32,000 nt of DNA from Aquifex aeolicus VF5 (GTDB lineage Bacteria > Aquificota > Aquificia > Aquificales > Aquificaceae). Each line of letters starts with the position of its first letter. The stretch's first letter is position 1. The DNA lies in the NCBI RefSeq assembly GCF_000008625.1, contig NC_001880.1, positions 7,457 to 39,456 on the forward strand, written 5' to 3'. Position numbers and translations under genes: made by a program. A model generated the notes under the pieces. That model did no database searches and had not been told where the DNA came from. It saw only the letters and a program-made list of their open reading frames with translations. This document shows, piece by piece, positions 888 to 31,555 of this stretch.

Positions 888-1265
888 GTTCCGCTAAATT
901 TTGGCGGAACTTACAAATTCCCTTGAAAAATAAAAACTTGACGAAAGCCTTTTCCTGTTCAGTTCTGCTAAAACTTAGCGGAACTATTATCAAGTTCCCC
1001 AAAATCAACGCCTTCATAAGTGGAAGATTTCGGTTCCGCTAAATATATATTGTTGTTGAAATTCCCTTAAAGTTTTGAATTTTTCTACAACAGATTTTCT
1101 TTTAGCGGAACTCACACGTACGCTTATAAGCTCTTTGAAAATCAAAGTCTTGAAATGGGTTATGCGTAGTTCCGCTAACTTTTAGCGGAACTTTAGTCTT
1201 TTACACTTTTCGGAGAAAATTGGAAATCAAGAGTTTGACGTTGTTCCGCTAATATTTGGCGGAAC
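888..1265. repeat. Palindrome (iteron/operator) array, family 1: GTTCCGCTAA-N3-TTAGCGGAAC
   Basis: 23-bp palindromes at 888-910, 962-984, 1169-1191 and 1243-1265. One split palindrome has half-sites at 1033-1043 and 1102-1111, 58 bp apart. Confidence 0.9.
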
Positions 1266-1328
1266 TCTAAATTTTTGATTTACTGAAAATCTGTAATCGG
1301 CTAAATTATTAACGAGAAGGTAATTACC

Positions 1329-2285
1329 GTGAGGGAGGAAGTTGAAAGGAAAATAAAGGAAGTTCTCGGAGTAAAAGAGGAGACTTTAAAGTATGAGGGA
1401 GTTTTCAGACGAAGAAAGAGGAAGGGGGCAAAGGAATACGAATATCTGGAAGCAAAGTTCTATGACATTGAAGAGAAGAAAATTGTAAACGTCCACGTCC
1501 CTGTAAAGAAAGAAAATCTTGTTCTTGAGCTGGACAGGCATTGGAAAGAAAGCAAGAAAAGGGAAAAAGAACTTGAAAAAAGGTTGAAAGAAATAATATC
1601 CGAATACAAAAATCCGGACCTAATAAGAGAAATCCTTGAAAGACTCCTTGAGGAAGGCATTCGGCGAGAAGCAAAAGATTACGCTTATGAAAAATACAAA
1701 AAGGAAGCTCTTGAGCTTTTTGAGAGGTTCAAGCCCTATCTTATCAAGCTAAGAAGGGAAAGACTGAAAAGAATAAACCTTTTGCAAGCACTATACCTTC
1801 TTGCGAATGTAAAGGAAATGTTCCAGGAAAAGGAAGAAGAACTTGAAAAGGTCATGGAAAGAGCGGTAAAAACAATCCTCTTTAGAGACCAAAACCAGAA
1901 ACTTCAGAGTCCTTTGGGAGTCTTGAAAAATGACTTTTTCCTTCCAAAAGAAACTCCTTACGATTTTTTGCTTTCTCGTTTCCTTCAAGCGGAACTCGAA
2001 CCTGTGCTTGAAAAGCTTCTGAAAGCGGAAATAGAAAAAGAAGAGACACAAGAGGCTATGGGAGAAATTGCAGAGTTTCTGACAGAACTTTCTGAAGAAG
2101 CAAAAAGTAGGGTTCTCAAAGTATTTCCATCCTTTTCGCAGTTTTCTAAAGTTTTGTACCGTGAGTGGAAGAAATCCGGACAATCTCTCAAGGATTTTCT
2201 TGTAGATTGGAAAAGCTTTCTCGAGTTCAAAGGAAAAGAAGCTGAAAAGGAAGTTTTGAACGTATTGTCTAAATTGAATTTATAA
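1329..2285 (+). CDS. 318 aa charged, helical protein, paralog A; candidate replication or iteron-associated protein
   Basis: Same length as 22553..23509, with shared blocks LQALYLLANVKE / LQVLYLLANLKE and LKNDFFL...TPYDFLLS.FL. GTG start preceded by GAGAAGG. Function inferred from position next to the iterons only. Confidence 0.75.
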   Translation: MREEVERKIKEVLGVKEETLKYEGVFRRRKRKGAKEYEYLEAKFYDIEEKKIVNVHVPVKKENLVLELDRHWKESKKREKELEKRLKEIISEYKNPDLIREILERLLEEGIRREAKDYAYEKYKKEALELFERFKPYLIKLRRERLKRINLLQALYLLANVKEMFQEKEEELEKVMERAVKTILFRDQNQKLQSPLGVLKNDFFLPKETPYDFLLSRFLQAELEPVLEKLLKAEIEKEETQEAMGEIAEFLTELSEEAKSRVLKVFPSFSQFSKVLYREWKKSGQSLKDFLVDWKSFLEFKGKEAEKEVLNVLSKLNL

Positions 2286-2674
2286 GGTAAGTTATTTAAT
2301 TAACCTTACTTAGTTAACTAAGCTAATTTATTGCCGGTTAAGTAATTTTCGAAAATGTTCTGAAGCTTGTACTCAGAAATCAAATTCCCCTTCAAGTTTT
2401 CCCGGAAACTCCTTAGAGCCTACTATTTATCCAGAGACAGGTAAAGAACCTGACAGAGAAGGGAAAGAGGGTAGATTCTTGCTTTGAGCTTGAAAGCCCT
2501 GCTTTACTCCTTAATCACTAAACGGGAAATGGAAATACCTGATACCACGGTCAAATGATGTAAACTATTGTCAGCAAAGAAGAAAAGGTTGATTATTCAG
2601 AACTGGCTTCCGAGGCTTTCATTTTAAGGGAAAAGTTGAAAGTGATAAAGTAGTTGACAATAAAGGAGTTTGTC

Positions 2675-2980
2675 ATGATATAGCCGAGCAATATAAAAAC
2701 CGAGGAGGACGTAAAGGAAGCAATTAAGGAGATTTTCAAAGATAAGAAGGTTAAGGTTTACCTTTTTGGCTCGAGGGCAAGGGGTGAGAACACACCCAGA
2801 AGCGACCTTAATCTGGGCTTTCTGTCGGATGAGGATATAGGTTATGAGCTTTCTCTTTTGAGGGAAATACTTGAGGAGTCAAACCTTCCCTTCTCGGTTG
2901 ATGTTGTTGACTTATCAAAGGCGGGAAGGGAGTTCAGGGAAATGGTTTTAAAGGAGGGTAAACTTTGGATAAGTTTATAA
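2675..2980 (+). pseudogene. MNT-type minimal nucleotidyltransferase (toxin-antitoxin component) with in-frame TAG at codon 3
   Basis: AGGAG at 2664-2668, ATG 2675, ATA, TAG 2681-2683, then an open frame to TAA 2978-2980. Translation contains YLFGSRARGENTPRSDLNLG (GS...RG...SDxD-like motif with the second Asp replaced by Asn). Not in the ORF track because there is no Met after the TAG. Confidence 0.7.
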
Positions 2981-3018
2981 AGCAATTAGAAGACTTTGAG
3001 AAATCCGTAAGGGAGAAC
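2965..3018 (+). pseudogene. Remnant of the HEPN-type partner of the MNT gene, cut after about 17 codons
   Basis: TTG 2965 follows AGGAGGG and overlaps the MNT stop. (M)DKFIKQLEDFEKSVRE resembles the N-terminus of nucleotidyltransferase substrate-binding / HEPN proteins. Similarity stops where the IS-terminus sequence begins at about 3017. Confidence 0.3.
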
Positions 3019-3076
3019 GCCAAGTTAAGGATTAGAGGAGTGTAGTGATCTAACGAGAATAAAAGAAGCAAGATGA
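3017..3076 (+). mobile_element. IS terminus copy 1 (GCCAAGTTAAGGATTAGAGGAG...GAGAATAAAAG)
   Basis: About 60 nt alignable by eye with 12246-12320 and 12594-12672, which contain the 3' end of a DDE transposase gene. Confidence 0.65.
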
Positions 3077-3140
3077 GATTTGTTGCATTTTGGCCAAGTT
3101 GGCAATTTTGCAACGAATTTGCGAGGTTAAAATCATTTTT

Positions 3141-3437
3141 ATGTGGGAGCTTTTGAAGCTTCTTGAGAGCTACTTTTCTTATCTTGATTACTGGGTAGGA
3201 AAGCAGGAAAGTGAAATCGGGAAAGTACTTGTTTTGCTGGTATTTCTTTTTACGCCTGTTGCGGTATGGAGGGTGTTGGGGAAGAAGTACAGGTTTCTTG
3301 AGAGGTACTTGAGGCTTGTAGCTTTTGTAATGTTTATTGCGACGGGGGCTTACGTTTTTCATCGGTATTTTGAGGTAGGTTTGCTTTGGGGACTCGTGCT
3401 TTCGTCTAAAGTTTACGAGTTTTTATGGAGTGACTAG
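3141..3437 (+). CDS. Hypothetical small membrane protein
   Basis: ORF 3090..3437. The internal ATG at 3141 avoids the IS-derived sequence. Hydrophobic segments VLVLLVFLFTPVAVW and LVAFVMFIATGAYVF. Confidence 0.35.
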   Translation: MWELLKLLESYFSYLDYWVGKQESEIGKVLVLLVFLFTPVAVWRVLGKKYRFLERYLRLVAFVMFIATGAYVFHRYFEVGLLWGLVLSSKVYEFLWSD

Positions 3438-3499
3438 AAGTCTATTTTAAATCCCTTGATTTTCGAGGAAAATCTTAATGGAAGTTTACCCCTAAACTT

Positions 3500-3625
3500 G
3501 GAAAGCTTGAAATACAAGCATTTCCCGAAGAAAGAGGTCTCAAAACTTATTACTACCTGAAACCGCAAGTTGTGGACTACCTTGTAGAAAAGCTTTCCAA
3601 TACTATCAACCGCCTGTATATTTAG
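3500..3625 (+). pseudogene. 3' fragment of a third copy of the excisionase-like HTH gene
   Basis: Translation ...AFPEERGLKTYYYLKPQVVDYLVEKLSNTINRLYI* matches the C-terminus of 613..834 (YYFKPEVVDYLLEKLSE). No N-terminal part or start codon. Confidence 0.6.
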
Positions 3626-6540: not shown

Positions 6541-6574
6541 TCTTTGATTTTCAATAAGTTATTAACCTATTTTA

Positions 6575-6775
6575 AAGCTATCATTAACTCTCGGCAGTGG
6601 AAGTATAGGGCTGTTGTTCAAGCTTGATAGCTTCCTAAAAGTCATTTTGCTTATAGTTGGAGTAGCTTTAACCACAGCTTTTGCAGGGCTTACGATAATC
6701 TTTTACCGAAAAGCTATTGACCTTCTTGAAGAGCTTGAGAAATTAGAAAAGAATAATGAGGCGAAAAATGTATGA
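6575..6775 (+). pseudogene. 5'-truncated paralog of the 89 aa membrane protein 12840..13109 (cassette A)
   Basis: Translation LTLGSGSIGLLFKLDSFLKVILLIVGVALTTAFAGLTIIFYRKAIDLLEELEKLEKNNEAKNV* aligns with the C-terminal two thirds of 12840..13109. No start codon. Confidence 0.55.
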
Positions 6776-7343: not shown

Positions 7344-7346
7344 GCC

Positions 7347-8163: not shown

Positions 8164-8502
8164 TTAGATAGGCTCAGTTTTGATTAGTTCAACAAGGGCT
8201 TTCAAAACCTTTATTGCTACCTGGATGTGAGGGTTCTTGGTTTTCAAATCCTTGACTTGTTCATATAGGTCGAGATATCTCTTATCCGCTTGTCTTATCT
8301 CATCCAGTAGCTGTTGCGGTATGTTCTCCTTATTCTTAGCTAAGTCTTCTCTTATTAAAAGGACCTGTGTTAGTTCAAAATCAAGAGCTGTGGGATAATC
8401 AACCTTAAAGTCTTCTATATCCGTGTAAAGTGCTTCGCTAACGTAAATCTTCAAGGAGTCTTCTAAGCTCTTTTCTAAAGTTTTCATTCTTATTCTTTCC
8501 AA
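8164..8502 (-). CDS. Hypothetical protein (start may be the internal ATG at 8487)
   Basis: 112 aa ORF overlapping the upstream ORF by 65 nt in another frame. No recognisable motif. Confidence 0.45.
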
Positions 8503-8853: not shown

Positions 8854-8943
8854 TTAGTATACTAACTAAGATTAGTAAGCTTTGTAATAAAAGCTATAAT
8901 TATTAGCTAAATAATATAAGTTAGATGAGTAAAGATAGAAATT
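8854..8943 (+). repeat. About 90-bp conserved non-coding element, inverted copy of 24470-24560 (centromere/operator-like)
   Basis: By-eye alignment to the reverse complement of 24470-24560 shows about 9 mismatches and 1 indel. Both contain ACTAACTAAG, TTTGTAATAAAAG, ATAAGTTAGAT and AAAGATAGAAA. Confidence 0.75.
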
Positions 8944-9018: not shown

Positions 9019-9975
9019 TTACTCCCTCTTAAATTTGTTGTTTCTTTTCAGGATAAATTTAAACCTTTTGCTTATGGACACGCGTGAAACTTTGGAACCT
9101 TTATGATGCCACTCTATTATTCCCATTTCTTCCAGTTTATTTAAATGAGCGTAGAAAGTTCTCTTCTTAAGACCTGAGAGATTCAGCAACTCGTCCGTCT
9201 TCATTCCGTACTCTCTGTCCTTCAAATGTTTAAGGATTGGTTCAAACTTGTGTAAAATTTCTTCATACTTTGCTTTCTCATTAATATACCAAGTAATTGC
9301 TCCATTTTTGTTTATGTAATAGTATATTTTTTCAAAAGGATAAGCAAAATTATGCTTTTCTATTGTCAATACCCGAAAGCTTTTCCCTTCTGTGTAGGCC
9401 TGCATAAAGGGAGTTGTTAAAAACTTAATTGTAGATACGCCCTGATACCTGTCCGTTTTATTTTTTCCTGAACTTTTAATCGTGTGATGAATAAACATTA
9501 TGTGACTTTCAGAATTTCTTGCTAACTTTCTTGTTTTTTTAATAAATTCCTTAACTTCTACAGGATCATAAATAGACTTTCCTTCATAAAAGGCAACAAA
9601 ACTATCAACCACAACAAAATCGTAGCGTTTTTGTTCCAGTATCTTTTCAAAACTCCTGTAATCCGAAATGTCGTCCAGATCCATTATTTCCATTTCTGAA
9701 GTGCTTATTCTGTATCTTTTTCTTATTGGTTCTAACTTTTCTAAGATATCTTCCTTATAAAGTTCCAGAGATATATAGGCTACTTTCTTCGGTTCCTTAA
9801 CTTTGAGTAAATTGTGAAATAAGTTCTTACCTGCACCTGCCAGTAGACACAAGTAAAGGCTTATGGTAGTTTTCCCTACACCTGAATCACCGTAAAGTAT
9901 GGAAACGTATCCCTTCCTGAAAAACTCGTCAAAATTTTGCGCACTGTTGCTCCTTTTGTATTCACTTAACCTCAT
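9019..9975 (-). CDS. RecA-superfamily (RepA/KaiC/AAA_25-like) ATPase with C-terminal winged HTH; candidate plasmid replicative helicase or loader
   Basis: Walker [10 protein letters not shown] and Walker [10 protein letters not shown]-terminal [21 protein letters not shown] looks like a wHTH. Confidence 0.65.
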
Positions 9976-12226: not shown

Positions 12227-12592
12227 CTATTTCCAGAATTTCGAGATTGCCAAGTTAAGGGTTAGAGGAGTGGAATGATCTAACGAGAATAAAAGAGGCA
12301 AATCAAGACCAACAGTTTCATATTTGGCATTGTGGGGAAATCGCTTGTGAAAACCCTTCATCCTTTGCTTTATGTGCTTGAACCACCTCTCCACTACATT
12401 CCTACCTCCGAAAGTTTCATGTATCCATCCGCAGTTTAGTTCCCTACATGCTTTCCTATACCATGGCCCCTTATCCGTTACAAACACGTATCCTTTTGAG
12501 TTGTAAAGCACAAGTTTTGCCACATGGGAGCTTTTTTTAGCACTTAACCACACAAAAGTAGGCACTCCCTTCAAGTTACAAGCTATCCACAA
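12227..12592 (-). pseudogene. 5'-truncated DDE transposase (IS6-like by eye)
   Basis: VTDKGPWYRKACRELNCGWIHETFGGRNVVERWFKHIKQRMKGF resembles the C-terminal catalytic region of IS6-type transposases. The N-terminal catalytic part is missing, replaced by another copy of the same IS terminus at 12594. Confidence 0.6.
12246..12320 (+). mobile_element. IS terminus copy 2 (contains the 3' end of the transposase fragment)
   Basis: GCCAAGTTAAGGGTTAGAGGAGTGGAATGATCTAACGAGAATAAAAGAGGCAAATCAAGACCAACAGTTTCAT aligns with copies 1 and 3. Confidence 0.7.
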
Positions 12593-13109: not shown

Positions 13110-13233
13110 TTTATCATTCTCCTAAAGACTGAGAATTCCCAAACTTCATCACCAAAGAAGTTTGATATTTGAAAATCAATAGATTGGTAAATATACCTTT
13201 ATAAACATATTGAAAATCAAAGGCTTAAAGCAA

Positions 13234-13648
13234 TCATTCTATAGTTAAGGCATTTGTACACTTCTTTACTCCCTTATCAAAGGACACAACTTTGTATTTC
13301 TTAGAATACGCACAAAGAAGGCAATCTACAAAGTCTAAGTTCTTATTAGAGTATATCTTTAGAGCCTCTATAAGGAGCTCATTATCTTCAATTTTCACAT
13401 TCCTAAGTTCCAGTATGTCTATAAGTACCTGTGATATAGTAGGTCTATCAACTTTATATACTTTCTTGAAGAACATAAACAATTTCGGCTATCACTACCT
13501 GTGGGATAAAAACTTTTAGTTCTCCGGAGAGTATCTTATTAAATAACTCCTCAGCCTCTTTATACAGCTTCCTGTGGTCTTTAAGTAGATATCGCAGGAT
13601 TACATTAGCATTAACAATTATCTCTTTTTCCCCTTTCCGCGAGGCCAT
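13234..13648 (-). pseudogene. vapC: PIN-domain VapC toxin split by a frameshift (copy A)
   Basis: ORFs 13454..13648 and 13234..13482 together form one PIN domain (IIVNANVILRYLL / VIAEIVYVL / KVYKVDRPTISQVL / LDFVDCLL / VVSFDK). The frame changes in the AAGAAAG stretch. The first catalytic Asp position reads Asn. Confidence 0.75.
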
Positions 13649-13859
13649 CGCCTATTGCCTCTTTTTCAGTTTTCATTATCTCTTCTATGGACCTGTCACG
13701 GGTAGCGTATTTGTGTAGAATTCCTCCCAATTTCTTAACAGGTTTAATTATTACTTTTCCCTTCTCATAGGTTATCTCAACTATATCAGTTCCTAATAAT
13801 TTCCTGTACTCAGCAGGTATGGTAATTTGTCCTTTCTTAGTAAGCTTAGCTATTTTCAT
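13611..13859 (-). CDS. vapB: AbrB/SpoVT-type antitoxin (copy A)
   Basis: MKIAKLTKKGQITIPAEYRKLLG is a typical swapped-hairpin AbrB/MazE N-terminus. Lies upstream of, and overlaps, the PIN gene. Confidence 0.8.
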   Translation of the reverse strand: MKIAKLTKKGQITIPAEYRKLLGTDIVEITYEKGKVIIKPVKKLGGILHKYATRDRSIEEIMKTEKEAIGDGLAERGKRDNC

Positions 13860-13960
13860 TCTTACCTACCTCAATAGGTACTACTTATTGTATAAAGTAT
13901 TACTTACATTATATAGTGTTACTTTTCACAAAAATGATTACATAGTATAGGTAGTTGTGA

Positions 13961-14110
13961 TTAGCTATGCTGTTTGTTAGAGACTGCCAAGATAAGGGTG
14001 TAAGAAAATAGGTATATGGGTGTGCCTGCATACGCGTTTATCTTCATCCTTTCTTCATTCTTAAAGGCTTTTATGATTTCTTTCTGTTCTTCCGTTAGTT
14101 TTATACCCAT
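13961..14110 (-). pseudogene. N-terminal fragment of a UvrD/AAA_19-type helicase
   Basis: MGIKLTEEQKEIIKAFKNEERMKINAYAGT then unrelated sequence. The Walker A motif (AGTGKT) is broken after AGT. Confidence 0.5.
13980..14013 (+). mobile_element. IS terminus copy 5 (short)
   Basis: GAGACTGCCAAGATAAGGGTGTAAGAAAATAGGT, compared with copy 4 GAGACCGCCAAGTTAAGGGAAATAGGT. Confidence 0.5.
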
Positions 14111-14127
14111 TAGTTTTAATATAATTT

Positions 14128-14153
14128 GAGACCGCCAAGTTAAGGGAAATAGG
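14128..14153 (+). mobile_element. IS terminus copy 4 (short)
   Basis: GAGACCGCCAAGTTAAGGGAAATAGG, followed directly by TTGAAAATCAA. Confidence 0.55.
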
Positions 14154-14256
14154 TTGAAAATCAAGGGAACTGTTAATAACAGAACTTTACTGGAGTTTTA
14201 GAATCTCTTGAATATGCTTTGGCAATTATTTTATATGACATAAACTGTAAACTTCT

Positions 14257-16000: not shown

Positions 16001-16190
16001 CTAAAGTTCCTCAAGAAGATCAAGTATTTTCCTGTAAGTAACAATCGTAAAAAGGACAAATCCGAGTGTTAGCGATGAGCCCGCAAAAAGCAAGAAAACC
16101 TTTAGCAAGCTATCAAGCTTTAACAACAGCCCTATATTTCCACCGCCGAAAGTTAATGATAGCTTTAAAATTGGTGAAGGAATTCCAAAC
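16001..16190 (-). pseudogene. 5'-truncated paralog of 12840..13109 (cassette B)
   Basis: The reverse complement aligns at DNA level with 6575-6740. It is truncated at the same point (ATTTTAAAGCTATCATTAAC). Confidence 0.55.
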
Positions 16191-18740: not shown

Positions 18741-18878
18741 ACTACTTAAAATTTCGCATCAGATAGTGCCTATTTCAAGCTAAGTCCTATCTTTTACTAA
18801 ACTTACTTTTCTAACTTATATAAGTTATATTACTTATAAAACTAAACTTTATTTAAAGAATAAAATTCATTAGCACCC

Positions 18879-19649
18879 TTATACGACTTCTACCAGTAAA
18901 GGAAAAGGTACGCCGGTTCCGCTCACAATACCTTTACCGGTAGGTAGTTTCGGAAGAATGTTCGCTATATCACTTCCAGCAAATTCTACAAAAGTGGAAA
19001 CTGTATCAATGTCAGATGCATTTATAGTTCTAAACATAACCTGAGTGTTTAATTGAGAAAGGATATATTTGCTAACCTGTGCTGGTCTTTGCGTTATTAC
19101 CATAAGTCCTAAATTGAATTTCCTTCCCTCGGATGCTATCTTTCTGGCAAAAGTGAGAGAAAGGTTTTCTTTTCCTGCGGAGACATCCCCGAATCCCTTT
19201 TCTGGAGCAAAATTGTGCGCCTCTTCCAGAACTAAAAATCTTTTGGAAGGTTGTTTCTTATTCCTTGTAAAAAGCTCTTCCATTATCAGTCCTGCTATGT
19301 TTATTCTCGTTTGTGGATGCGTAATATTCCGGAAGTTAAAAATAATTACTCTCTTTTCACTTTCTAGTCCAGAATTTATTGCATCAAATACAGTTGTTTG
19401 GTTAGATAAACTATTTTCACCGTAAGTTTCTTTAAGGTAAGTGGTTATTTCTTGTATTTCCTTAGAACCCGCATTTAAACTTTCTATCAAATTAACAAGT
19501 GTTTTCTTAGATAAAGAAGTAAGTCTAAGAGAGGGTTTTATGTTCTGTGAAAGTTTTGATCTATTTTCCCTGGCCTGGTGTGAATTACCGCTTACCAGTG
19601 AAGGGTATCCTGCTTCTTTTATAAGTTCTTCCACTTCCTCTGGAAACAC
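18879..19649 (-). CDS. herA: HerA/FtsK-superfamily ATPase, C-terminal half (Walker B, arginine finger region)
   Basis: FLVLEEAHNFAP...EGRKFNLGLMVITQRPAQVSKYILSQLNTQVMFR is a typical HerA/DUF87 C-terminal core. In frame with 19686..20498 across one TAG. Confidence 0.75.
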   Translation of the reverse strand: MFPEEVEELIKEAGYPSLVSGNSHQARENRSKLSQNIKPSLRLTSLSKKTLVNLIESLNAGSKEIQEITTYLKETYGENSLSNQTTVFDAINSGLESEKRVIIFNFRNITHPQTRINIAGLIMEELFTRNKKQPSKRFLVLEEAHNFAPEKGFGDVSAGKENLSLTFARKIASEGRKFNLGLMVITQRPAQVSKYILSQLNTQVMFRTINASDIDTVSTFVEFAGSDIANILPKLPTGKGIVSGTGVPFPLLVEVV

Positions 19650-19685
19650 AGGGAAAATTGTATCTTCAAGTTCGATATGTTCTAT

Positions 19686-20498
19686 CTAGTTTTCATCTAT
19701 ATAACTCTTTAAATCGTTGAAGTATTCTCCGTGAGGATCAAGTACATAAACTTCAACTTCTTTATCGGATTCAAGTAAACTGGAAATAAACCTTTTTGTA
19801 AAATAGCTTTTTCCTGAACCGGTAGTACCTAGTACGAGCATGTGTTTACTTATCACCTCGTTTGCATCTACAAACACATCTATGTCAGAATTCTCAATCA
19901 CGCCAACTTTTACAGGAACTTCCATATCTCTCCCGGAAAAATTCTTCTTGAGTATTTTCCCCAGTGTTTTTTCTGATATTTTATAAACAGGTTCTCCTAC
20001 ATGGAAGGGATTTCTTAATATATCTAATTTTCCATCCTTTAGTATACCTATTACGTCCGCGGTTGCTATTTTCAGTTTATTTCCATTATTGTTGAGGTAA
20101 GCGTAAATAGCCGCCTTTTTCCATTCGTCATCTTTTCCTTTAGAAAAAATGGTTTTAAAGTCCTCTACGGGAGCAAAAACACTGGATTCCTGTGAAGTGA
20201 AGGGATTCGCAAAAAATCCCATATCGTAAGCAAAAATACTTGTTATCTTTCCGAGCACAATACCTTCCTGTAATTTCACTTCAACGTAAGAATGTAAACC
20301 TATATCATCATTGCCTACCAGAATAAACTCAAAGGATTGAGGTTTTACAGGATTTACAGTAAATCCTAAAAGATCATCTCCAAAACTTTCGGAATACTCT
20401 TCCTTAATTTTTTCAAAGTATTCACGTAGTTTTTTAATATGTTCATCACTGCCGTCCGATTCGTAATAAACTCCCGCTTCTATATTGCCCGTTGACAT
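19686..20498 (-). CDS. herA: HerA/FtsK-superfamily ATPase, N-terminal half (HAS-barrel region plus Walker A)
   Basis: HMLVLGTTGSGKSYFTKRFI...VYVLDPHGEY. Ends at TAG 19686-19688, which is in frame with the downstream half. Confidence 0.75.
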   Translation of the reverse strand: MSTGNIEAGVYYESDGSDEHIKKLREYFEKIKEEYSESFGDDLLGFTVNPVKPQSFEFILVGNDDIGLHSYVEVKLQEGIVLGKITSIFAYDMGFFANPFTSQESSVFAPVEDFKTIFSKGKDDEWKKAAIYAYLNNNGNKLKIATADVIGILKDGKLDILRNPFHVGEPVYKISEKTLGKILKKNFSGRDMEVPVKVGVIENSDIDVFVDANEVISKHMLVLGTTGSGKSYFTKRFISSLLESDKEVEVYVLDPHGEYFNDLKSYIDEN

Positions 20499-21873: not shown

Positions 21874-22092
21874 TTAGACGGAGAGCTCCTGAACAAGAAA
21901 ATCTACCACTTCCGGTTTGAAGTAGTAGTAATTAACAAGTCCTCTTCTCTTTATCCTTACCAATTCACCGGGAATGAAGCCTCTCTTTACATAACGGATT
22001 AAAGTTCTATCGCTTATCTCTATACCTCTTTCTTTAAGTTCTCTTAGAACCTGCGTACTCGTAAGATATCCCTGAATTCTTATTGCCGGCAT
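21874..22092 (-). CDS. Small excisionase/MerR-like HTH DNA-binding protein, paralog B
   Basis: 72 aa. RGFIPGELVRIKRRGLVNYYYFKPEVVDFLVQELS parallels 613..834. Confidence 0.7.
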   Translation of the reverse strand: MPAIRIQGYLTSTQVLRELKERGIEISDRTLIRYVKRGFIPGELVRIKRRGLVNYYYFKPEVVDFLVQELSV

Positions 22093-22149: not shown

Positions 22150-22493
22150 GTTCTCCTATATATAGGAGAACTACTTTGAGCTCGCTAAAAATCAAGTCTC
22201 AGACACACCACTTGAACTCCGGAAGTTCTCCTAGCTATAGGAGAACCGCTACTTAACTTATTGATTTTCAAGCACTTTCTGTTTAGTTCTCCTAGAAACA
22301 TTTATATCTTTTTCCATATACAAAAGCTTTTTGTTATTGGAGAAGTAATAAGTTATATAGGAGAACTCTCCTTTCAAGTTTTTGATTTTCAATATAGTTC
22401 TCCTATATATAGGAGAACTTTTGTGATTTTTTCTATTCTGTAATGCCCGATTTTTAGTTTGGTCATAAGTGGTTCTCCTAGAACTAGGAGAAC
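22150..22493. repeat. Palindrome (iteron/operator) array, family 2: GTTCTCCTA-N4-TAGGAGAAC
   Basis: 22-bp palindromes at 22150-22171, 22225-22246, 22397-22418 and 22472-22493. A split palindrome has half-sites at 22286-22295 and 22358-22366. Confidence 0.9.
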
Positions 22494-22552
22494 CGACAAA
22501 GCAAAAAAATAGATAAAATCGAGGAATGCGACACTAAAATAGTTTTTAGGAC

Positions 22553-23509
22553 ATGCTTGAAGTTGAAAAAAAGATAAAACAAAAGCTGGGGATAGATGAA
22601 ACAGAGGTCCTGAGCTCCCTAACGAGCTACCGGAAAAAAGGCAAAACCTACTATAAAATTGTAACATACGATTCAAAAACGAAACAATCTAGGAGATACC
22701 ATGTGCCCAGAATGTTCGAAGAGGAGATTTTAGCTCTCTGGAAGCAGCGGCAGAAGTACATTGAAGAAGAAAGGGAACTTGAAAGGGAAGTAAAAAGCCT
22801 CTTAAAAAAATACGGGGATGCAGAAAAGATAAAGGAAATTCTGGAAAAAGTAGCAGGAGAAAGTTTTGATAAAGCTGTTTCCTCTTACGCAATTAAGACT
22901 TACACGAATAAGGCAAAGGAACTCTTTAAGAGTTTTAAAGAAGACCTTATAAAGCTTTACAGGGAGGGAGTTTTAAAAAGGCTTTCAGTTTTGCAGGTCC
23001 TTTACCTTCTTGCAAATTTGAAGGAGATTTCCGAAGATACGGAAAGAGGAAGTTACTTTTTCAAGAAAGGACTGAACACGATAATAAAAGTAGCAAAAAA
23101 CGAACGTATCCCAAATCCTTTCGGAACACTTAAAAACGACTTTTTCCTTTCGGGAAAGCAGACCCCTTATGACTTTCTCCTTTCGAATTTTCTTGAAGAG
23201 CTTATAGGAGAAACTCTAGGAGAACTCCTTGAAAAGGAAATTGAGAAATTAGTAGCGGAAGAAAAAGCAAAAGAAATCGAGGGAAAAGTAAAGAAGTTAA
23301 AGGAAATTGTTTCATGGTTTGAAACCCTTCCCTACGAAATAAAACAGATTGCAAAAGAAGTAATTTCTGACAATGTTCTGGATATTGCAGAAAAGTTCTA
23401 CAAGGATATGAAAGAATGCAATTACTCTCTTGATGAAGCAAAAGCATTTTTAACAAGTTCTCCTAGAGATAACCTGGTGAATTACATGCAATACCTTAAG
23501 TCTATATGA
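22553..23509 (+). CDS. 318 aa charged, helical protein, paralog B; candidate replication or iteron-associated protein
   Basis: Same length and shared motifs with 1329..2285. Confidence 0.75.
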   Translation: MLEVEKKIKQKLGIDETEVLSSLTSYRKKGKTYYKIVTYDSKTKQSRRYHVPRMFEEEILALWKQRQKYIEEERELEREVKSLLKKYGDAEKIKEILEKVAGESFDKAVSSYAIKTYTNKAKELFKSFKEDLIKLYREGVLKRLSVLQVLYLLANLKEISEDTERGSYFFKKGLNTIIKVAKNERIPNPFGTLKNDFFLSGKQTPYDFLLSNFLEELIGETLGELLEKEIEKLVAEEKAKEIEGKVKKLKEIVSWFETLPYEIKQIAKEVISDNVLDIAEKFYKDMKECNYSLDEAKAFLTSSPRDNLVNYMQYLKSI

Positions 23510-23514: not shown

Positions 23515-23718
23515 TTACGCATTCTCTGAGAGTATTTCCGTTATAAGATCCTTCAACGTTTTCCCTTCCTTTAATGCCCTCATTTTAAGAGAAAACCACA
23601 CATCATAAGGAAGCTCTATCAGAAGTTTCTTAACCTGTGGTTTTTCTTCCCCTTCTTTTATCTTTGCAGAAGCTATAAATTCCTCGGGTTTTTTTGAAGG
23701 TTTCTTCGGTATAGCCAT
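23515..23718 (-). CDS. Small RHH centromere-binding partition protein (ParG-like)
   Basis: 67 aa directly downstream of parA. KKLLIELPYDVWFSLKMRALKEGKTLKDLITEIL fits an RHH with a basic flexible N-terminus. Confidence 0.6.
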   Translation of the reverse strand: MAIPKKPSKKPEEFIASAKIKEGEEKPQVKKLLIELPYDVWFSLKMRALKEGKTLKDLITEILSENA

Positions 23719-23748: not shown

Positions 23749-24390
23749 TTAAGCAATATTAATTATATTACTAATTTCATTTATTAAGCTTTCAAGCTCC
23801 TCTATTGCTTTTTTATCGTTCATTTCAAGCACTCCCTTTCCTTCTTTTACAGAGTTTCTGTAAACTACTCTTGAGTGCAATCTTGAATTTAATACTCCTA
23901 CGGAGTACTGCTGTGCTAATTCTCTCAGGGTTTCCTCAGCTTCTTTCACGATGTTAGACTTTATTACTTGATTAAACAGTATATAAGCCGGGATATCTGC
24001 AAAGGTCCTTGCTTCTTGCAGAACCTTCAGGGTATCTTCTGTTGCCCATACATCGTAAACACTTGGGAGAACAGGTATTATCAAAGCTCCGTTTGATGCT
24101 GCAAGAATCGCGCTTCTGAAAACTGCACTATCTCTTCCCCCTACGTCGATAACTACAACATCAAAATTTTCAAAACCCTTAATGTCTTTGTGAATTGTGG
24201 GCTTTGTAATACCTATTGCTTTAATGTCGTCTTTTTCCCTGAGTGCCCTGAAGTTCAAACTACTTTCCTGGATATCCGCATCAATAAGTAGAACACTTTT
24301 TCCTCTGAGAGAATATCCTACGGCTAAATTACACGCAACAGTACTTTTCCCTACTCCTCCCTTCTGATTACCTACCACGATTACTTTCAT
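23749..24390 (-). CDS. parA: ParA/Soj-family partition ATPase (type Ib size)
   Basis: Deviant Walker A MKVIVVGNQKGGVGKST, then VLLIDADIQ; 213 aa. Confidence 0.9.
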   Translation of the reverse strand: MKVIVVGNQKGGVGKSTVACNLAVGYSLRGKSVLLIDADIQESSLNFRALREKDDIKAIGITKPTIHKDIKGFENFDVVVIDVGGRDSAVFRSAILAASNGALIIPVLPSVYDVWATEDTLKVLQEARTFADIPAYILFNQVIKSNIVKEAEETLRELAQQYSVGVLNSRLHSRVVYRNSVKEGKGVLEMNDKKAIEELESLINEISNIINIA

Positions 24391-24399
24391 AATGTTATT

Positions 24400-24575
24400 T
24401 ATTTTAGCAATATTTATTAGATAAGTTAGCTAACTAAAACTGATTTCAATATTTGATTATATAGATATGCCGCTTTCTATCTTTGCTTATCTAACTTATG
24501 TTGTTTAACTAATAATGATAACTTTTATTACAAAGTTTACTAACCTTAGTTAGTTACTAAAAAGCTTGAAACATT
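24400..24575. promoter_or_regulatory. Putative par promoter/centromere region with TAACTAA / ATAAGTTAG repeats
   Basis: Immediately upstream of parA. Contains AGATAAGTTAGCTAACTAA, CTTATCTAACTTATG and CCTTAGTTAGTTACTAA. Its core (24470-24560) is repeated in inverted orientation at 8854-8943. Confidence 0.55.
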
Positions 24576-24907
24576 ATGGTAAATACTTTATCAATAAAAC
24601 ATATGTTTATGAGAATATTTAAAAAGAAGATAATCAAAACGCTTTTAGGCCATATTTTAGTAAGGAGAAAGAAGAGGAAAAACCTTACGGATTTGGTAGG
24701 GGCTATTAAAGGAGGAGATAGCTTTAACGCAGTTGAGGATAAGCATAAATTATATCAAGTTTGCTAGACAAATAGCTTTAGTGGTAACGGTTGTAGGCTT
24801 TGCGTGGTGGTACATGAGAACGATTCTAAAAAATTTTTGTTAAGTTTTTTTAGAAACTCAATAATATCTTTTTCTTCTCCCGCAGAAACTTCAAAACTTT
24901 TTAGAGG

Positions 24908-25096
24908 GTTCTCATACTTATTATGTTGTCATTGAATGTGTATAAAGATTTAGGGTTTACATTAGTACCTATATTAATGTATGAGAGCTTTATTAGAAAG
25001 CCTTGAAAACAGGTAAGGTTCTCATACCTATGGGAAAACTCTAAAAAATGTGAAATTCTTGAAAATCAAAATGGTTCTCATACTTATATGAGAATC
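24908..25096. repeat. Palindrome array, family 3: GTTCTCATA-N4-TATGAGAAC (partly degenerate)
   Basis: Best copy 25074-25096 (GTTCTCATACTTATATGAGAATC). Weaker copies at 24908-24930 and 25018-25039. A right half-site TATGAGAGC at 24979-24987. Confidence 0.7.
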
Positions 25097-25176
25097 TTCA
25101 AAAAACTCATTTTTTTGAGGAATTGTTAACCTCGGTTTACAACTTTTTATTTTTCTTCCGTGTAAACCTTTCTTAA

Positions 25177-26194: not shown

Positions 26195-26435
26195 AGTCAA
26201 CAAGCTCATACTAAAGGTGCAAACTTGAATCTGGAAGATTTTACTAATGGGAGAAAGTGTCGCTTCCGTTGTAAATGAACCTTTACAACTTCGCTTCTTA
26301 GTTCTCCTGAATTCGGGATAATTTTTGTTGTCCTAGTTCTTTTGTTAACATTTTTCCCAAGGGAAGTTTAAATCACCGTATCAGCTTATTAGGTATCTTG
26401 AATTTCAATCAGTTACGATTAACTTAAAAGATACG

Positions 26436-27398
26436 ATGACGTATCAAAACGGTGTTGAAGTTTTACTTGAGGAATTTCTTGATTATCTAACAAAGGAAGA
26501 AACCATATGCTCGCTGGAAATAGAAAAGTTAAAAGTTTCTATAGACGAACTTGAGAAAGAAACTGATGAGCCGAGAGTACTTCAAGGGATAAACTATTTC
26601 AGAACCGCAAAAGAAGTTTACCAACTTTCACGGAAAGCATATGAAACAAAAGAGGAAGTGGTCTCTGAAGCTTTAATACTATGGATTTATGAAAACCTAT
26701 GGAAAGGATTTAATGTTCCCAAGGGATATAGAAAAAGTGATATGGTTATTTTCGGTGCAAAATTTAGTCCTCCACCACCATATGTTGTTCCGAACCTTAT
26801 AAGAACAATAGTAAACTGGCTAAGGAATGAGAAAACAATAGATGTAGTTAAGAAATCTATTATTTTCCACACGCTATTTGAAGTTATACATCCGTTTCCT
26901 GACGGCAACGGAAGAGTGGGAAGAATACTTTTGAATGCAATCCTCGTAGAAAACGGACTCTTAAATGTTGCTTTTAGAAATAGAGAGAAATATATCTCCG
27001 CCTTGAGAGAAGCTGAAGAGGGAGCTATAGTAGTTGTTGAAAAACTATCAAGAGGAAGAAAAATAGATTATTCATCTATTACAGAAACTGTAGAGTATTA
27101 CGGAAACTTAAATGTTTTTGATGAACTAATAAGAACCGAGATGATGCACAGCTTGAAGGTATACTCAAATATAAAGCAAGTTTTCTTAACTCCAGAGGAG
27201 GCAGCAAAACTTTTAGGTTTAAAGAATAAGGATTACGTAAGAGTTCTAATCCACAGAGGAAAACTAAAAGCAGTTAAGGAAGAAGGTAAGTGGAAGATAC
27301 CTCTTTCTGAAGTTGTAAAGAACTTTGAACACAAACTGAAAGGAGAAGAATTCAAACTTGCCAATAATTTGTTCAAAGGTAAACTTAGTCCTTCTTAA
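26436..27398 (+). CDS. Fic-domain protein with C-terminal excisionase-type HTH
   Basis: Fic motif HPFPDGNGRVGR. C-terminal LTPEEAAKLLGLKNKDYVRVLIHRGKLKAVKEEGKWKIPLSEVV resembles HTH_17/excisionase domains. Confidence 0.85.
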   Translation: MTYQNGVEVLLEEFLDYLTKEETICSLEIEKLKVSIDELEKETDEPRVLQGINYFRTAKEVYQLSRKAYETKEEVVSEALILWIYENLWKGFNVPKGYRKSDMVIFGAKFSPPPPYVVPNLIRTIVNWLRNEKTIDVVKKSIIFHTLFEVIHPFPDGNGRVGRILLNAILVENGLLNVAFRNREKYISALREAEEGAIVVVEKLSRGRKIDYSSITETVEYYGNLNVFDELIRTEMMHSLKVYSNIKQVFLTPEEAAKLLGLKNKDYVRVLIHRGKLKAVKEEGKWKIPLSEVVKNFEHKLKGEEFKLANNLFKGKLSPS

Positions 27399-27438
27399 TT
27401 CCCGACAAAGTTGCTCTATCAGAAAGTTTTACCAGAAA

Positions 27439-27490
27439 GTCCTATATATAGGACAACTTTTCTACAGAGTTCTCATATCGGTATGAGAAC
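27439..27490. repeat. Two palindromes: GTCCTATATATAGGAC and a perfect family-3 site GTTCTCATATCGGTATGAGAAC
   Basis: 27439-27454 and 27469-27490, read directly from the sequence. Confidence 0.85.
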
Positions 27491-27781
27491 TTTTGCGTTG
27501 TGAACCATGGTTTACAACCTCAGGCAAGTCTTAACTGAGCTAAATTTAACCAAACTAAATTAATATACTTATGGAATATATACACGAAAGTATAAGAGAA
27601 TTCTGTTGTAAAAAGGGAGTGGGGTGTTCTAATTCTATCATTAATTCTGTCTCTTCTTGCAACATATGTGTAAACATTTTTCAAGGTAAGAAAGAAGAAG
27701 GTTTAACTTGAATTCCAAAAGCTCTTCAACTTTTTATTTTGCATCAGACATAGGAAAAAATCCTCCAAAACTCGGACCAAG

Positions 27782-28477: not shown

Positions 28478-28571
28478 GCTAAAAATTGTATGCAGTTTTG
28501 AGGCGAAAACATATGAATAAGGTGTCTGCAGTTTGGAGGCGAGCTATATTGAATACATAATCACCATAAAA

Positions 28572-28686: not shown

Positions 28687-28695
28687 AGGTATAAG

Positions 28696-29040
28696 ATGGT
28701 GTTGGGCTGGACCTTGGATTTGAACACACAAATGTAGTTGCAAATGGGAGGAAGTTTAAGTTTCCAAGCTGGATAACTTATCTTTCGAAAAGTACAATTT
28801 CGGAAGCAGAAGAGGTAAGGGTAGGCTCGGAGAGTATGGTTGTGGGGGAAGACGCAAAGTATGAACCGAGAAAGATAGAAATCAAAGGTGTCAACGCTGA
28901 TAAAGTATTCTCCCTACTTCCTCGCTTATATGGTAAAACTACTCGGCGAAGAACCAAAAGTTGTGATAAGCGATCTTCCTCTAGTGCTTAAGGACAAAAA
29001 GGAACAATACAAAGAAGTCCTCAAAAGTGTCCTCAGATGA
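28696..29040 (+). pseudogene. Actin-like (ParM/Alp-type) segregation ATPase remnant, frameshifted and truncated
   Basis: One frame gives VGLDLGFEHTNVVANGRKFKFPS (phosphate-1 DxG motif plus FPS). It is out of frame with ATG 28696 by 1 nt. A further shift occurs near 28905. It ends at 29040 after about 115 codons. Confidence 0.5.
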
Positions 29041-29060
29041 CATGTTCGAGGGATTTTTCT

Positions 29061-29274
29061 GAAGTAAGGTTTTTTGAATTTACGAAAGTAAGGCTAAAGA
29101 GGGAAGTCAAGTTGGTGAATTTCAAGGAAGTAAGGTTGAAGACAGGGAAGTAAGGTTCGTGAATTTGCAGGAAGTAAGGTTAAAGAGGGAAGTAGGGAAG
29201 TTTCGTATTGTGTGAATTCGCAGGAAGTAAGGGACAAGCGGGAAGTCTTGTGAATTTTTACCTTTTTGTGAATT
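29061..29274 (+). repeat. Iteron array of interleaved GGAAGTAAGG and GTGAATT boxes
   Basis: GAAGTAAGG-type boxes at about 29061, 29084, 29126, 29145, 29170 and 29223, with variants at 29101, 29188 and 29240. GTGAATT-type boxes at 29115, 29159, 29212, 29250 and 29268 (TGAATT only at 29075). All are in one orientation. Confidence 0.8.
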
Positions 29275-29574
29275 ACCACTTTGAAGTAGGGTTTACAGGA
29301 AAACGTAGAGTTTGCTAAAATCAGGAATATTCTGTATGCGTAAGTCTTATCCCGAAGGCAAATTTAAAAATCACGAAGTATTTAATCAATTTTTCTTCCT
29401 TTTCAGGTATATCAAATATCCTGCAAGTCCTAGATTAAATAGGAATACTAGCGTAGTTGCAATAAAGAATTTGTCAAATTCAAACATTTACTCACCTTGA
29501 AACTAGAGGCCGAAATAGTAATAGATAGTAATTTTATCCCAAATAAAGTAAAAAGTATATACTAATGGACAAAT

Positions 29575-30613
29575 TTGTAAACCTTGGTTGAGCCTGTTGA
29601 AAAAATCGTCATGACTTAGAGAATAAAGCGAGAGGAAGCCCATGTAATCCTCAAAAGGTTAAGACACAATAAAAGGAGCTTCAGAAGAAGGATCAAGTTG
29701 TAAAGAACAAACCTCCCTAGAACATACAAACTCGCAATCTCAAAGTCATAAACATTGTCCCTGTCCCCAAACCTGTTCTTAACTATCCCTATCACCTGCT
29801 CAACCCTGTACCTGTTCTTTCTATAAACCTTCCTCCTTATCTCATAATTCCTCTTAGCCCATAGCCTATACATGTTCCTAACTCTTGTATGTGCAGTATC
29901 CCTCACCGGAACTATAGACTCCATCCGTAGCTTCTTTATTTCCTCTAAAACTCCTGCAGACTTCCCATAGTAGGCATCCCCAAGAAAATACCTCGCTCTA
30001 AAGCCAAGTTCTTTGAGCATGGATCTTAGCAGCATATTCTCATCTGCATAGGATTTGCCTGTGTTTATATCCACTACTATAGCTTTGTTTCTTACAACTC
30101 CTACAAGAACTTCTGTTTTCACATGAGATTTTACATTCCTAAGTTCCTTTCCCTTCTTCCACTTGAGTTCATATGCCTGTGCATATCCAAATCCGGTTCC
30201 GTCAGCAATAAGGCAGTAAAACTCTTTTGCCTGAAGCTTTTCCATTATCTCCTTTGCGGTCCTGTGTATTAGCTCTTTGAGATAGCCCCGGTTTAGTTTT
30301 CTGAACCTGTAGTGGAGAGTGGTAAAGTCAGGTACTTTGGGGAATAGGTCTTTTAGTCTTTCTTCTAAATCTCGGAGGGAGAGGTTTTCTAAGATCTTAA
30401 TCAGTAGTGCTGCTACTATGAGGTGATCTTCGTAAACTCTGGGTCTTCCTCTTTTGTTGTACTGACTTGGTCTAATGGTATTGCATATTTCCCTGCTTTT
30501 GGTTAATATCAGTTTTATCAATTGCTTGTTATTTCTTGTTCTCATTCCCTTCCTTCTACTTCTTCTCTTCCACTGTGTCAAGATTTTTTAAACGGGCTTA
30601 CCTTGGTTTACAA
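29575..30613 (-). mobile_element. IS element (IS4/IS5-superfamily type) with imperfect terminal inverted repeats
   Basis: Left end TTGTAAACCTTGGT at 29575. The right end reverse complement is TTGTAAACCAAGGT, ending at 30613. Encloses a single transposase ORF. No clear target duplication seen. Confidence 0.7.
29616..30581 (-). CDS. DDE transposase (DDE_Tnp_1 / IS4-IS5 type)
   Basis: 321 aa with LIADGTG, FLGDAYYG and YRKNRYRVEQVIGIVKNRFG, a D, D, E pattern with the Y-R-E signature. Confidence 0.8.
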   Translation of the reverse strand: MTQWKRRSRRKGMRTRNNKQLIKLILTKSREICNTIRPSQYNKRGRPRVYEDHLIVAALLIKILENLSLRDLEERLKDLFPKVPDFTTLHYRFRKLNRGYLKELIHRTAKEIMEKLQAKEFYCLIADGTGFGYAQAYELKWKKGKELRNVKSHVKTEVLVGVVRNKAIVVDINTGKSYADENMLLRSMLKELGFRARYFLGDAYYGKSAGVLEEIKKLRMESIVPVRDTAHTRVRNMYRLWAKRNYEIRRKVYRKNRYRVEQVIGIVKNRFGDRDNVYDFEIASLYVLGRFVLYNLILLLKLLLLCLNLLRITWASSRFIL

Positions 30614-30695
30614 TTCCTGGAAAACAAAAAGGAATGACTTTCTAAGAGTGACGAATCGGTTTACATTAGGAAATACATATTAAGGATAAGTAAGG

Positions 30696-30944
30696 ATGAA
30701 GATAGCTAAGCTTACTAAGAAGGGACAATTTACCATACCTACGGGATATAGGAAATTATTAGGAACTTATATAGTTGAAATAACCTATGAGAAAGGAAAA
30801 GTAATAATTAAACCTGCTAAGAAATTGGGAGGAATTCTACATAAATACGCTATCCGGGACAGGTCCATAGAAGAGATAATGAAAACTGAAAAAGAGGCAA
30901 TAGGCGATGGCCTCGCGGAAAGGGGAAAAAGAGATAATTGTTAA
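30696..30944 (+). CDS. vapB: AbrB/SpoVT-type antitoxin (copy B)
   Basis: 82 aa with 6 substitutions relative to copy A, all in the first 53 residues. Confidence 0.8.
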   Translation: MKIAKLTKKGQFTIPTGYRKLLGTYIVEITYEKGKVIIKPAKKLGGILHKYAIRDRSIEEIMKTEKEAIGDGLAERGKRDNC

Positions 30945-31321
30945 TGCTAATGTAATCCTGCGATATCTACTTAAAGACCACAGGAAGCTGTATAAAGAGG
31001 CTGAGGAGTTATTTAATAAGATACTCTCCGGAGAACTAAAAGTTTTTATCCCACAGGTAGTGATAGCCGAAATTGTTTATGTTCTTCAAGAAAGTATATA
31101 AAGTTGATAGACCTACTATATCACAGGTACTTATAGACATACTGGAACTTAGGAATGTGAAAATTGAAGATAATGAGCTCCTTATAGAGGCTCTAAAGAT
31201 ATACTCTAATAAGAACTTAGACTTTGTAGATTGCCTTCTTTGTGCGTATTCTAAGAAATACAAAGTTGTGTCCTTTGATAAGGGAGTAAAGAAGTGTACA
31301 AATGCCTTAACTATAGAATGA
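30907..31321 (+). pseudogene. vapC: PIN-domain VapC toxin split by the same frameshift (copy B)
   Basis: ORFs 30907..31101 and 31073..31321 are identical in protein sequence to the copy A ORFs. Confidence 0.75.
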
Positions 31322-31555
31322 TTGCTTTAAGCCTTTGATTTTCAATATGTTTATAAAGGTATATTTACCAATCTATTGATTTTCAAATATCAAACTTCTT
31401 TGTCCAAGAAGTTTGGAAAAATAAATCAAAAGGAGGAGGTAGAAAAATGCTAAGAAAACTCTTCTTTCTCCTCATTTTCCTGAGTGCAATCACACTTGCA
31501 GTTCCAGAAGAAGTTTGAGGTTTGATAATCAATATGTTTATAAACTTCTGGCAGG

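Follow-up and report, generated by a model that had tools for sequence, protein, structure and literature searches.

The sites of integration host factor (IHF) in pSC101, in the R6K gamma ori and in the P1 parS arrays are short, have a WATCAA core, lie in phase between repeats and are uncritical in their orientation. The operators of KorA and KorB of IncP plasmids and the omega heptads (WATCACW) of pSM19035 are near-palindromic words dispersed over about ten non-coding places, among them the control regions of maintenance genes and the surroundings of toxin–antitoxin genes. The nic/bind regions of rolling-circle double-strand origins (dso) and of origins of transfer (oriT) combine an invariant site with variable repeats, and a hairpin lies a few bases from the site. 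Likenesses to all three are found in one 11-mer, TTGAAAATCAA, of ece1, the 39,456-bp plasmid of Aquifex aeolicus VF5, which was analysed here over a stretch of 32,000 nt (NC_001880.1, positions 7,457 to 39,456; hereafter the window, numbered from its first letter). Almost nothing is known about replication, partition and regulation of the plasmids of hyperthermophilic bacteria, and ece1 has been left uncharacterised since the genome of 1998; our literature search retrieved no paper that mentions the 11-mer in a bacterial context or analyses the biology of ece1. From the distribution of the word, we judge it reasonably probable that a single protein, sequence-specific and probably symmetric (dimeric), recognizes it and is common to a family of control modules on Aquificaceae plasmids.

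Occurrence of the 11-mer

Ten exact copies are present in the window, starting at 1135+, 6544-, 13169+, 13210+, 14154+, 22261-, 22382-, 25059+, 31335- and 31376- (the sign gives the strand), where 0.12 would be expected; none of 100 shuffles contained more than one. Since four of the copies lie inside a 733-nt inverted duplication with 97% identity (13136-13868 / 30687-31419), the number of independent sites in the window is eight. An initial annotation, made from the sequence alone, had given the same ten starts, at least eight independent sites and an expectation far below one copy, all of which the counts bear out. With up to one mismatch, the window holds 16 matches against 3.2 expected. 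The near-variants listed in that annotation do exist, at coordinates that had to be slightly corrected, namely 1220 (TTGGAAATCAA), 3456 on the minus strand (TCGAAAATCAA), 31522 (TTGATAATCAA) and 22185 (CTAAAAATCAA, with two mismatches); additional one-mismatch copies are found at 8237, 8374 and 26398. For ece1 as a whole, the counts cover the window and the 4,368 bp to its left (Logan contig L002), in which an eleventh exact copy (L002:844) is located 170 bp upstream of aq_aa07.

The supported genes of the window are free of exact copies, as the initial annotation had claimed for intact coding open reading frames (ORFs). Just three copies are overlapped by ORFs, all of them short and unsupported (13961-14164, 22261-22443 and 22389-22676). 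The word thus occupies eight independent non-coding places in the window and one further on ece1, a pattern expected of a dispersed operator. In 101 kb of DNA of the plasmid family, 22 exact copies were counted. Where independent gene calls are available (86 kb), non-coding DNA makes up 21% and contains 15 of the 16 exact copies (p=9e-10), the sole one inside a called gene being L182:1958. Comparison with chromosomal DNA had been proposed as the test of a simple compositional artefact and was made on a LeuT-anchored 21.5-kb segment (L183) from the metagenome-assembled genome (MAG) of a related Aquifex (LeuT 88% identical, GC content 37%), which stands in for the VF5 chromosome. This segment contains no exact copy and two one-mismatch copies, which is the level of chance; at the density observed on the plasmid, about 6.7 exact copies would be expected. 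A one-mismatch word in this sample (L183:7059, TTGATAATCAA) lies within a feoA/feoB operon. It looks like the core of a Fur box and probably has nothing to do with the site on the plasmids.

Anatomy of the site

The word is better written TTGA-AAW-TCAA than TTGAAAATCAA. In the 101 kb of family DNA, TTGA-N3-TCAA is found 35 times, and the same half-sites separated by 1, 2, 4, 5 and 6 bp are found 0, 3, 6, 8 and 2 times, respectively. The centre triplet is AAA/TTT in 22 cases and AAT/ATT in four, each remaining triplet occurring once. The rule is therefore two inverted TTGA half-sites around a 3-bp A-tract without a TpA step. The left half, TTGA, is conserved as strongly as the right half (1.0-2.2 bits). 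In the flanks, the information stays below 0.7 bit per position and the consensus, yTTGAAAATCAAag, is weak.

Architecture of the control modules

Many of the copies belong to modules that follow one plan: a small helix-turn-helix (HTH) gene, a palindrome array of ~400-500 bp and a 318-aa gene of the aq_aa07/11/34 family. The array reads, in order, palindrome 1, palindrome 2, a split palindrome with ~70 bp of AT-rich DNA between its halves, palindrome 3, palindrome 4 and the gene. It thus holds about five palindromes, and consecutive elements are ~72-75 bp apart (~73 bp, 7 helical turns). On ece1, there are three complete modules, of which that of aq_aa07 has its region at L002:582-1022, and one orphan array. 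Within the window, they comprise:

613-834, minus strand: HTH_17-like gene of the aq_aa11 module, 73 aa
835-1328, plus strand: aq_aa11 control region, with GTTCCGCTAA..TTAGCGGAAC palindromes at about 888, 962, 1169 and 1243 and the split palindrome at 1033 / 1102
1329-2285, plus strand: aq_aa11, 318-aa protein of apparently orphan fold
21874-22092, minus strand: HTH_17-like gene of the aq_aa34 module, 72 aa
22093-22552, plus strand: aq_aa34 control region, with GTTCTCCTATATATAGGAGAAC palindromes at 22150, 22225, 22397 and 22472 and the split palindrome at 22286 / 22358
22553-23509, plus strand: aq_aa34, 318-aa paralogue
24768-25176, plus strand: orphan array of GTTCTCATAC..GTATGAGAAC palindromes; its homologue in L007 precedes P0031

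The palindromes are 22-24 bp long and each region has a family of its own, that of aq_aa07 being GTTCTCCCTATATAGGGAGAAC. The fourth array has lost its 318-aa gene; it is called orphan because its palindrome family precedes a 315-aa homologue in the MAG contig L007. Eight further modules, taken from the contexts of homologues on an Aquifex pyrophilus contig and in metagenomes, were included in the comparison. Nine palindrome families were distinguished among the modules, one of them without the GTTC core (GTTGTAAACC, L182). The architecture is accordingly common to ece1, the A. pyrophilus contig and metagenomes from hot environments. When 12 kb were compared by megablast with PLSDB and with phage records, no match was obtained, and a protein-based search for related loci returned two from the genome scan and none from the metagenome or viral scans.

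Further palindromes are seen elsewhere in the window. Those at 26268-26289, 27497-27518 and 27469-27490 comprise members of the GTTGTAAAC family, to which the L182 palindromes belong, on both sides of the Fic gene aq_aa38, and a lone palindrome of the GTTCTCATA family just past this gene. At 31556-31718, three CTTTCTATCCCATATATGGGGACTAAAACGA copies follow at intervals of exactly 66 bp, and every copy has a TCCCATATATGGGA palindrome; this array is of a different family and runs towards the end of the window.

Position, phasing and orientation of the word within modules

The initial annotation had suggested examining related plasmids for conservation of the word. If one mismatch is allowed, 11 of the 12 complete modules have it, as does the orphan array, and among these both palindromes and proteins have diverged. 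The remaining module, L181, has a copy with two mismatches only, at the usual distance from a palindrome; in L180, at the other extreme, 400 bp hold three exact copies plus a near copy. In a k-mer survey of 13 arrays, sub-words of the 11-mer were the only words common to 10-13 of them. It had also been stated that the word sits between the palindromes of all three families recognized in the window, which is correct for 1135, for 22261 and 22382, and for 25059. The module copies in the window are:

1135-1145, plus strand: exact, aq_aa11 module, between split palindrome and palindrome 3, 23 bp from both arms
1220-1230, plus strand: one-mismatch TTGGAAATCAA, aq_aa11 module, between palindromes 3 and 4; the same variant occurs at the same place in A. 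pyrophilus, flipped
22185-22195, plus strand: two-mismatch CTAAAAATCAA, aq_aa34 module, between palindromes 1 and 2
22261-22271, minus strand: exact, aq_aa34 module, spacer from palindrome 2 to split palindrome, both arms 14 bp away
22382-22392, minus strand: exact, aq_aa34 module, spacer from split palindrome to palindrome 3, arms 15 and 4 bp away
25059-25069, plus strand: exact, orphan GTTCTCATAC array, next palindrome 4 bp away

Any inter-palindrome spacer may be occupied, in either orientation and with 1-4 copies per array, and copies within an array are spaced by about 41, 74-85, 121 or 146 bp in both orientations. Their position relative to the palindromes is more constrained. Edge-to-edge distances between the 11-mer and the flanking palindrome arms cluster at 4, 14-15, 24-26 and 35 bp, and the nearest arm is 12-15 bp away at 14 of 19 sites. 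At a period of 10.5 bp, the helical phasing reaches a Rayleigh R of 0.63 with p ~2e-7, a value that is optimistic because the modules are related and not fully independent; when sites were placed at random within these spacers, this R was not attained in any of 20,000 trials. The pattern persists across different palindrome families. Moreover, in two pairs of orthologous modules (the aq_aa11 module with that of A. pyrophilus, and the orphan array with L007b), the palindromes align and the spacers have diverged, and the 11-mer is found at the same place, yet flipped. These in-place flips point to symmetric recognition and to selection for position rather than orientation.

Copies outside the modules

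The other copies in the window, with the hairpin that accompanies some of them, are:

3456, minus strand: one-mismatch TCGAAAATCAA
6544-6554, minus strand: exact, isolated and non-coding, between a decayed S8-peptidase region and a repeated cassette, no palindrome nearby
13141-13163, no strand assigned: hairpin (dyad) AAACTTC-N9-GAAGTTT, which accompanies the 11-mer in four plasmids
13169-13179, plus strand: exact, first of a direct pair spaced by 41 bp, 4 bp past the hairpin CAAACTTC-N9-GAAGTTTG
13210-13220, plus strand: exact, second of the pair, directly 3′ of the vapBC cassette
14154-14164, plus strand: exact, isolated, after a truncated repeat resembling the end of an insertion sequence (IS), 3′ of an AbiEii gene
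26398-26408, minus strand: one-mismatch TTGAAATTCAA, upstream of the Fic gene; the variant also occurs in modules L009 and L182
31335-31345, minus strand: exact, counterpart of 13210 in the inverted duplication
31376-31386, minus strand: exact, counterpart of 13169 in the inverted duplication
31522-31532, plus strand: one-mismatch TTGATAATCAA, with a TATGTTTATAAA flank as in the 13210 unit

The 41-bp direct pair is preceded by the dyad and ATAT and lies 3′ of vapBC in both arms of the duplication. The composite of dyad and word recurs as a pair in A. pyrophilus (L006:6185/6226), as a single copy in L007 (10979) and as a degenerate pair in L009 (2570/2611). The only other matches to the dyad pattern, L002:1887 (inside aq_aa07) and L180:5438, are isolated and probably due to chance. 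When the pattern of the pair was sought in metagenome and viral scans, ~170 loci were obtained, none related to ece1 by blastn, and their gaps peaked at 25 and 31, not at 30. An intrinsic terminator was considered for the hairpin and ruled out, the vapBC strand having no T-run. The inverted duplication itself encodes a MazE-type antitoxin and a PIN toxin split into ORFs of 64 and 82 aa; recombination between its arms could invert the intervening 16.8 kb.

The initial annotation had further placed the word at junctions between larger elements. This is loosely true and carries little weight. The copy at 14154 does follow the IS-end-like repeat, and the pair lies 33 bp inside the outer end of the duplication. 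The link is nevertheless weak, because the copy at 6544 is 8 bp outside the cassette arm at 6562-6652 and the second cassette arm (16088-16178) has no copy.

Candidate binders and a possible mechanism

Aq_aa07, aq_aa11 and aq_aa34 are paralogous genes of 317/318 codons whose products are 36-61% identical; across the modules, the 318-aa proteins share 35-64% identity. A profile search returned ~30 homologues, all unannotated, of which one is encoded on the 34-kb A. pyrophilus contig and the rest are metagenomic. The family has two invariant blocks, LQxLYLLAN and GTLKNDFFL..TPYDFLLS, and two invariant tyrosines, Y151 and Y206. The AlphaFold2 model of aq_aa34 (predicted local distance difference test score 89) consists of a small three-stranded N-terminal sheet and long helices. 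Searches for this protein found no Pfam, NCBIfam or PHROG family, no sequence match in the PDB and no fold match in the PDB or BFVD, and family scans found no Rep signature in the gene beside the arrays; judged from the model, the family is an orphan fold.

An HTH_17-like gene encoding 72-73 aa flanks each control region of the 318-aa genes on ece1. Where two modules have the same palindrome family, the region of the recognition helix hardly differs between their HTH proteins (aq_aa11 and A. pyrophilus, 54% identical overall); between palindrome families it does differ. This covariation suggests that the HTH protein reads the palindromes. In L181 and L182, a winged-helix protein of 130-143 aa takes the place of the 73-aa HTH protein, and the palindrome of L182 is quite different. 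L182 nonetheless retains the 318-aa gene and an exact 11-mer, and L181 the gene along with its two-mismatch copy. With the HTH protein exchanged and the 318-aa gene kept, the invariant word would seem to travel with the large protein and its invariant core. Of the two candidate binders that the sequences suggest, the 318-aa protein is ranked first because every module combines it with the word, including those whose small HTH protein is of a different family, and a host protein of the IHF/HU type second.

We propose that such control regions work as follows. The palindromes are the variable, module-specific sites, probably read by the module's own HTH protein, and the 11-mer is the invariant site, which the phasing places in the spacers so that it and the palindromes face the same side of the helix. 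The protein bound there may bend or bridge the array, or directly contact the palindrome-bound protein, and both would then assemble into a single higher-order complex. This complex would control neighbouring genes, serve as an origin- or centromere-like maintenance site, or do both. The copies outside the modules, i.e. the 41-bp pair by the hairpin and the singles, may be further docking sites for the same protein. A tentative extension, possible rather than probable in our estimate, is that the 11-mer is the universal docking/processing site of the aq_aa07/11/34 family. This would imply a hitherto unrecognized plasmid maintenance/replication system of hyperthermophilic Aquificaceae, with a two-part code held in fixed helical register, in which the variable palindromes are addressed by the small HTH protein and the invariant 11-mer by the large one. 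Since ece1 also encodes aq_aa20 and aq_aa27, described below, the replicon need not lie in the modules. These might serve in copy control, in a partition-like role or in regulation, or might be what is left of small replicons that were cointegrated.

In practical terms, the 11-mer offers a short and exact bait with which to find the protein that organizes these control regions. If the binder were the orphan-fold 318-aa protein, a new maintenance system would be defined; if it were the host IHF/HU, this would be the first sequence specificity for such a protein in a deep-branching thermophile.

Weighing of the alternatives

That the word binds a factor of the plasmid or of the host had been the first of two suggestions in the initial annotation, and its exactness across diverged regions, its near-confinement to non-coding DNA, the flips and the phasing argue for this indirectly but strongly. 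Several points weigh on the other side. The copies at 6544 and 14154 have no palindrome partner, L182:1958 lies inside a called gene, the phasing statistic suffers from the relatedness of the modules, and the chromosomal comparison depends on a related Aquifex. Half-sites 7-8 bp apart are unusual for HTH dimers. As regards the 318-aa protein, it has no recognizable DNA-binding fold and its invariant residues are atypical of DNA readers; a host factor conserved in Aquificaceae would explain its co-occurrence with the word equally.

The host candidate deserves particular attention, since the right half of the word with its downstream bases can be read as an IHF site (WATCAANNNNTTR) at which IHF would bend the array as in iteron origins or P1 parS. 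Every exact copy contains AATCAA, the WATCAA core, and of the ten strict WATCAANNNNTTR matches that the window contains, eight coincide with the 11-mer or its variant at 1220. The TTR element follows four bases after the core in 7 of 10 copies on ece1, against ~5% by chance, and both the helical phasing and the indifference to orientation would suit a bending protein. An ihfB annotation is listed for the A. aeolicus chromosome (PMC4227106). Outside ece1, however, TTR follows only 1 of 10 exact copies, and family-wide it is found at 5 of 20 module sites; on ece1 it may have been inherited with a unit of ~36 nt. Nor does the IHF consensus include the conserved left half TTGA or account for in-place flips, the word lacking the asymmetry of an IHF site, and IHF sites are normally degenerate rather than exact 11-mers. 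For these reasons (the scarcity of TTR elsewhere, the ~36-nt unit, the left half and the flips), IHF/HU is retained as a serious competitor for the role of binder and not as a classification of the site; on our estimate it is unlikely to be the answer.

The second suggestion of the initial annotation, a shared promoter element, would make the word a -35 hexamer (TTGAAA, which resembles TTGACA) or an alternative-sigma box for the module genes or small RNAs. It would agree with the intergenic location of all copies and with TTATAA 5 bp upstream at three sites, but it is not supported: a -10-like hexamer at 16-18 bp is present at one of eight independent sites, as a weak 9/12 match, and the orientation relative to the downstream gene is not conserved, with flips between orthologous modules and copies facing both ways within arrays. 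Moreover, the 41-bp pair lies at the 3′ end of convergent genes, and the HTH genes have better sigma-70 matches elsewhere (869-842 and 22131-22103). We regard this explanation as quite improbable. We think much the same, and a shade less, of a site processed by nicking or recombination, on the dso/oriT pattern, by a DNA-cleaving enzyme such as the 318-aa protein with its invariant Tyr/Asp. An invariant site next to variable specificity repeats does mirror the nic/bind layout, the hairpin with the 11-mer 4 bp further on recurs in four plasmids, and Y151 and Y206 would be at hand. Arrays with multiple copies in both orientations fit poorly, however; the 318-aa protein lacks the signatures of HUH enzymes, relaxases and recombinases and matched no fold in the PDB or BFVD, and the deletion in assembly L003 (see below) apparently runs via 59-nt direct repeats, not via the 11-mer. 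Finally, the word might be functionless, an AT-rich string inherited from the common ancestor of duplicated modules or an artefact of composition. The modules are indeed paralogous, and some ece1 copies share similarity extending over 36 nt. Yet the spacers are near-random by divergence and the word is exact across plasmids of different hosts; copies change position and still keep the helical phase. Coupled with the expectation of 0.12, the 15 of 16 non-coding copies and the absence of exact copies from the chromosome sample, this leaves the explanation scarcely credible. Recognition by one symmetric protein thus remains the reading that we prefer.

Some familiar sites were rejected as identities of the word. 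The FNR/CRP box (TTGAT-N4-ATCAA) does not occur in the window, and in family DNA a gap of 6 is found twice against 35 times for a gap of 3; a 3-bp rather than 6-bp gap is incompatible with a dimer of the CRP family. The 11-mer has no CCAC core as in the DnaA box (TTATCCACA-like 9-mer), and the one-mismatch boxes in the window are scattered and never at the sites. Fis, ARG and Fur boxes were dismissed by inspection of their consensus sequences. A known RNA was rejected as well, since the Rfam covariance models gave no hit at the gathering score in any part of the window.

Other features of ece1

Further genes and proteins identified in the window are:

9019-9975, minus strand: aq_aa20, RepA/DnaB-C-like AAA_25 ATPase with a C-terminal winged helix
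17326-18105, minus strand: aq_aa27, with weak similarity to the P4-primase C-terminal (primase-C-like) domain and to DUF927
23515-23718: ribbon-helix-helix (RHH)-like protein of 67 aa, after ParA
23749-24390, minus strand: ParA
26436-27398: aq_aa38, Fic protein

Aq_aa20 and aq_aa27 are candidates for the actual replication proteins of ece1. Repeats rich in TAACTAA/TTAGTTA lie upstream of ParA (24391-24575) and are copied at 8861-8941 (81 nt, 89%) and partly at 18794-18827; these repeats may serve the 67-aa RHH-like protein as centromere or operator. A HerA/FtsK-like ATPase with HAS barrel and DUF87 (18879-20498, minus strand) appears to be split into adjacent ORFs of 270 and 256 aa. The transposase aq_aa40 of the IS5-like ISAae1 (29616-30581, minus strand) is identical to the chromosomal aq_1391 and aq_1640, and the IS is therefore common to plasmid and chromosome; a tandem repeat of 42-44 bp (29061-29246) adjoins it. 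In the Logan assembly L003 (ERR15087784), position ~2.9 kb of the window is joined directly to ~12.4 kb. This represents a deletion variant lacking ~9.3 kb, apparently lost between the 59-nt direct repeats at 3013-3071 and 12243-12301.

Comparison with known systems

The likenesses to described systems set out at the beginning have their limits. Compared with the IHF sites, the ece1 word is exact, conserves its left half TTGA, does not keep TTR outside ece1 and reaches up to 3-4 copies per array (L180). FNR/CRP boxes have identical half-sites, TTGA and TCAA, and differ in their spacing of 6 instead of 3 bp. In contrast with nic/bind regions, several copies are present in both orientations, and family scans revealed no associated HUH or relaxase protein. 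Iterons are tandem, of the same orientation, regularly spaced and located beside a rep gene whose product binds them; the arrays considered here have 1-4 copies of the word in both orientations. The operators of KorA/KorB and omega differ in that the ece1 word is embedded at fixed helical phase among module-specific palindromes and is common to plasmids of different hosts; in addition, the RHH protein associated with ParA appears to have its own TAACTAA-type repeats. The ece1 word is thus familiar in kind, either as the site of a shared accessory protein within repeated operator or iteron arrays or as a dispersed global operator. What is new is that it stays exact although modules and hosts have diverged, that it keeps a fixed helical register with palindromes that vary, and that it is tied to an apparently orphan protein family.

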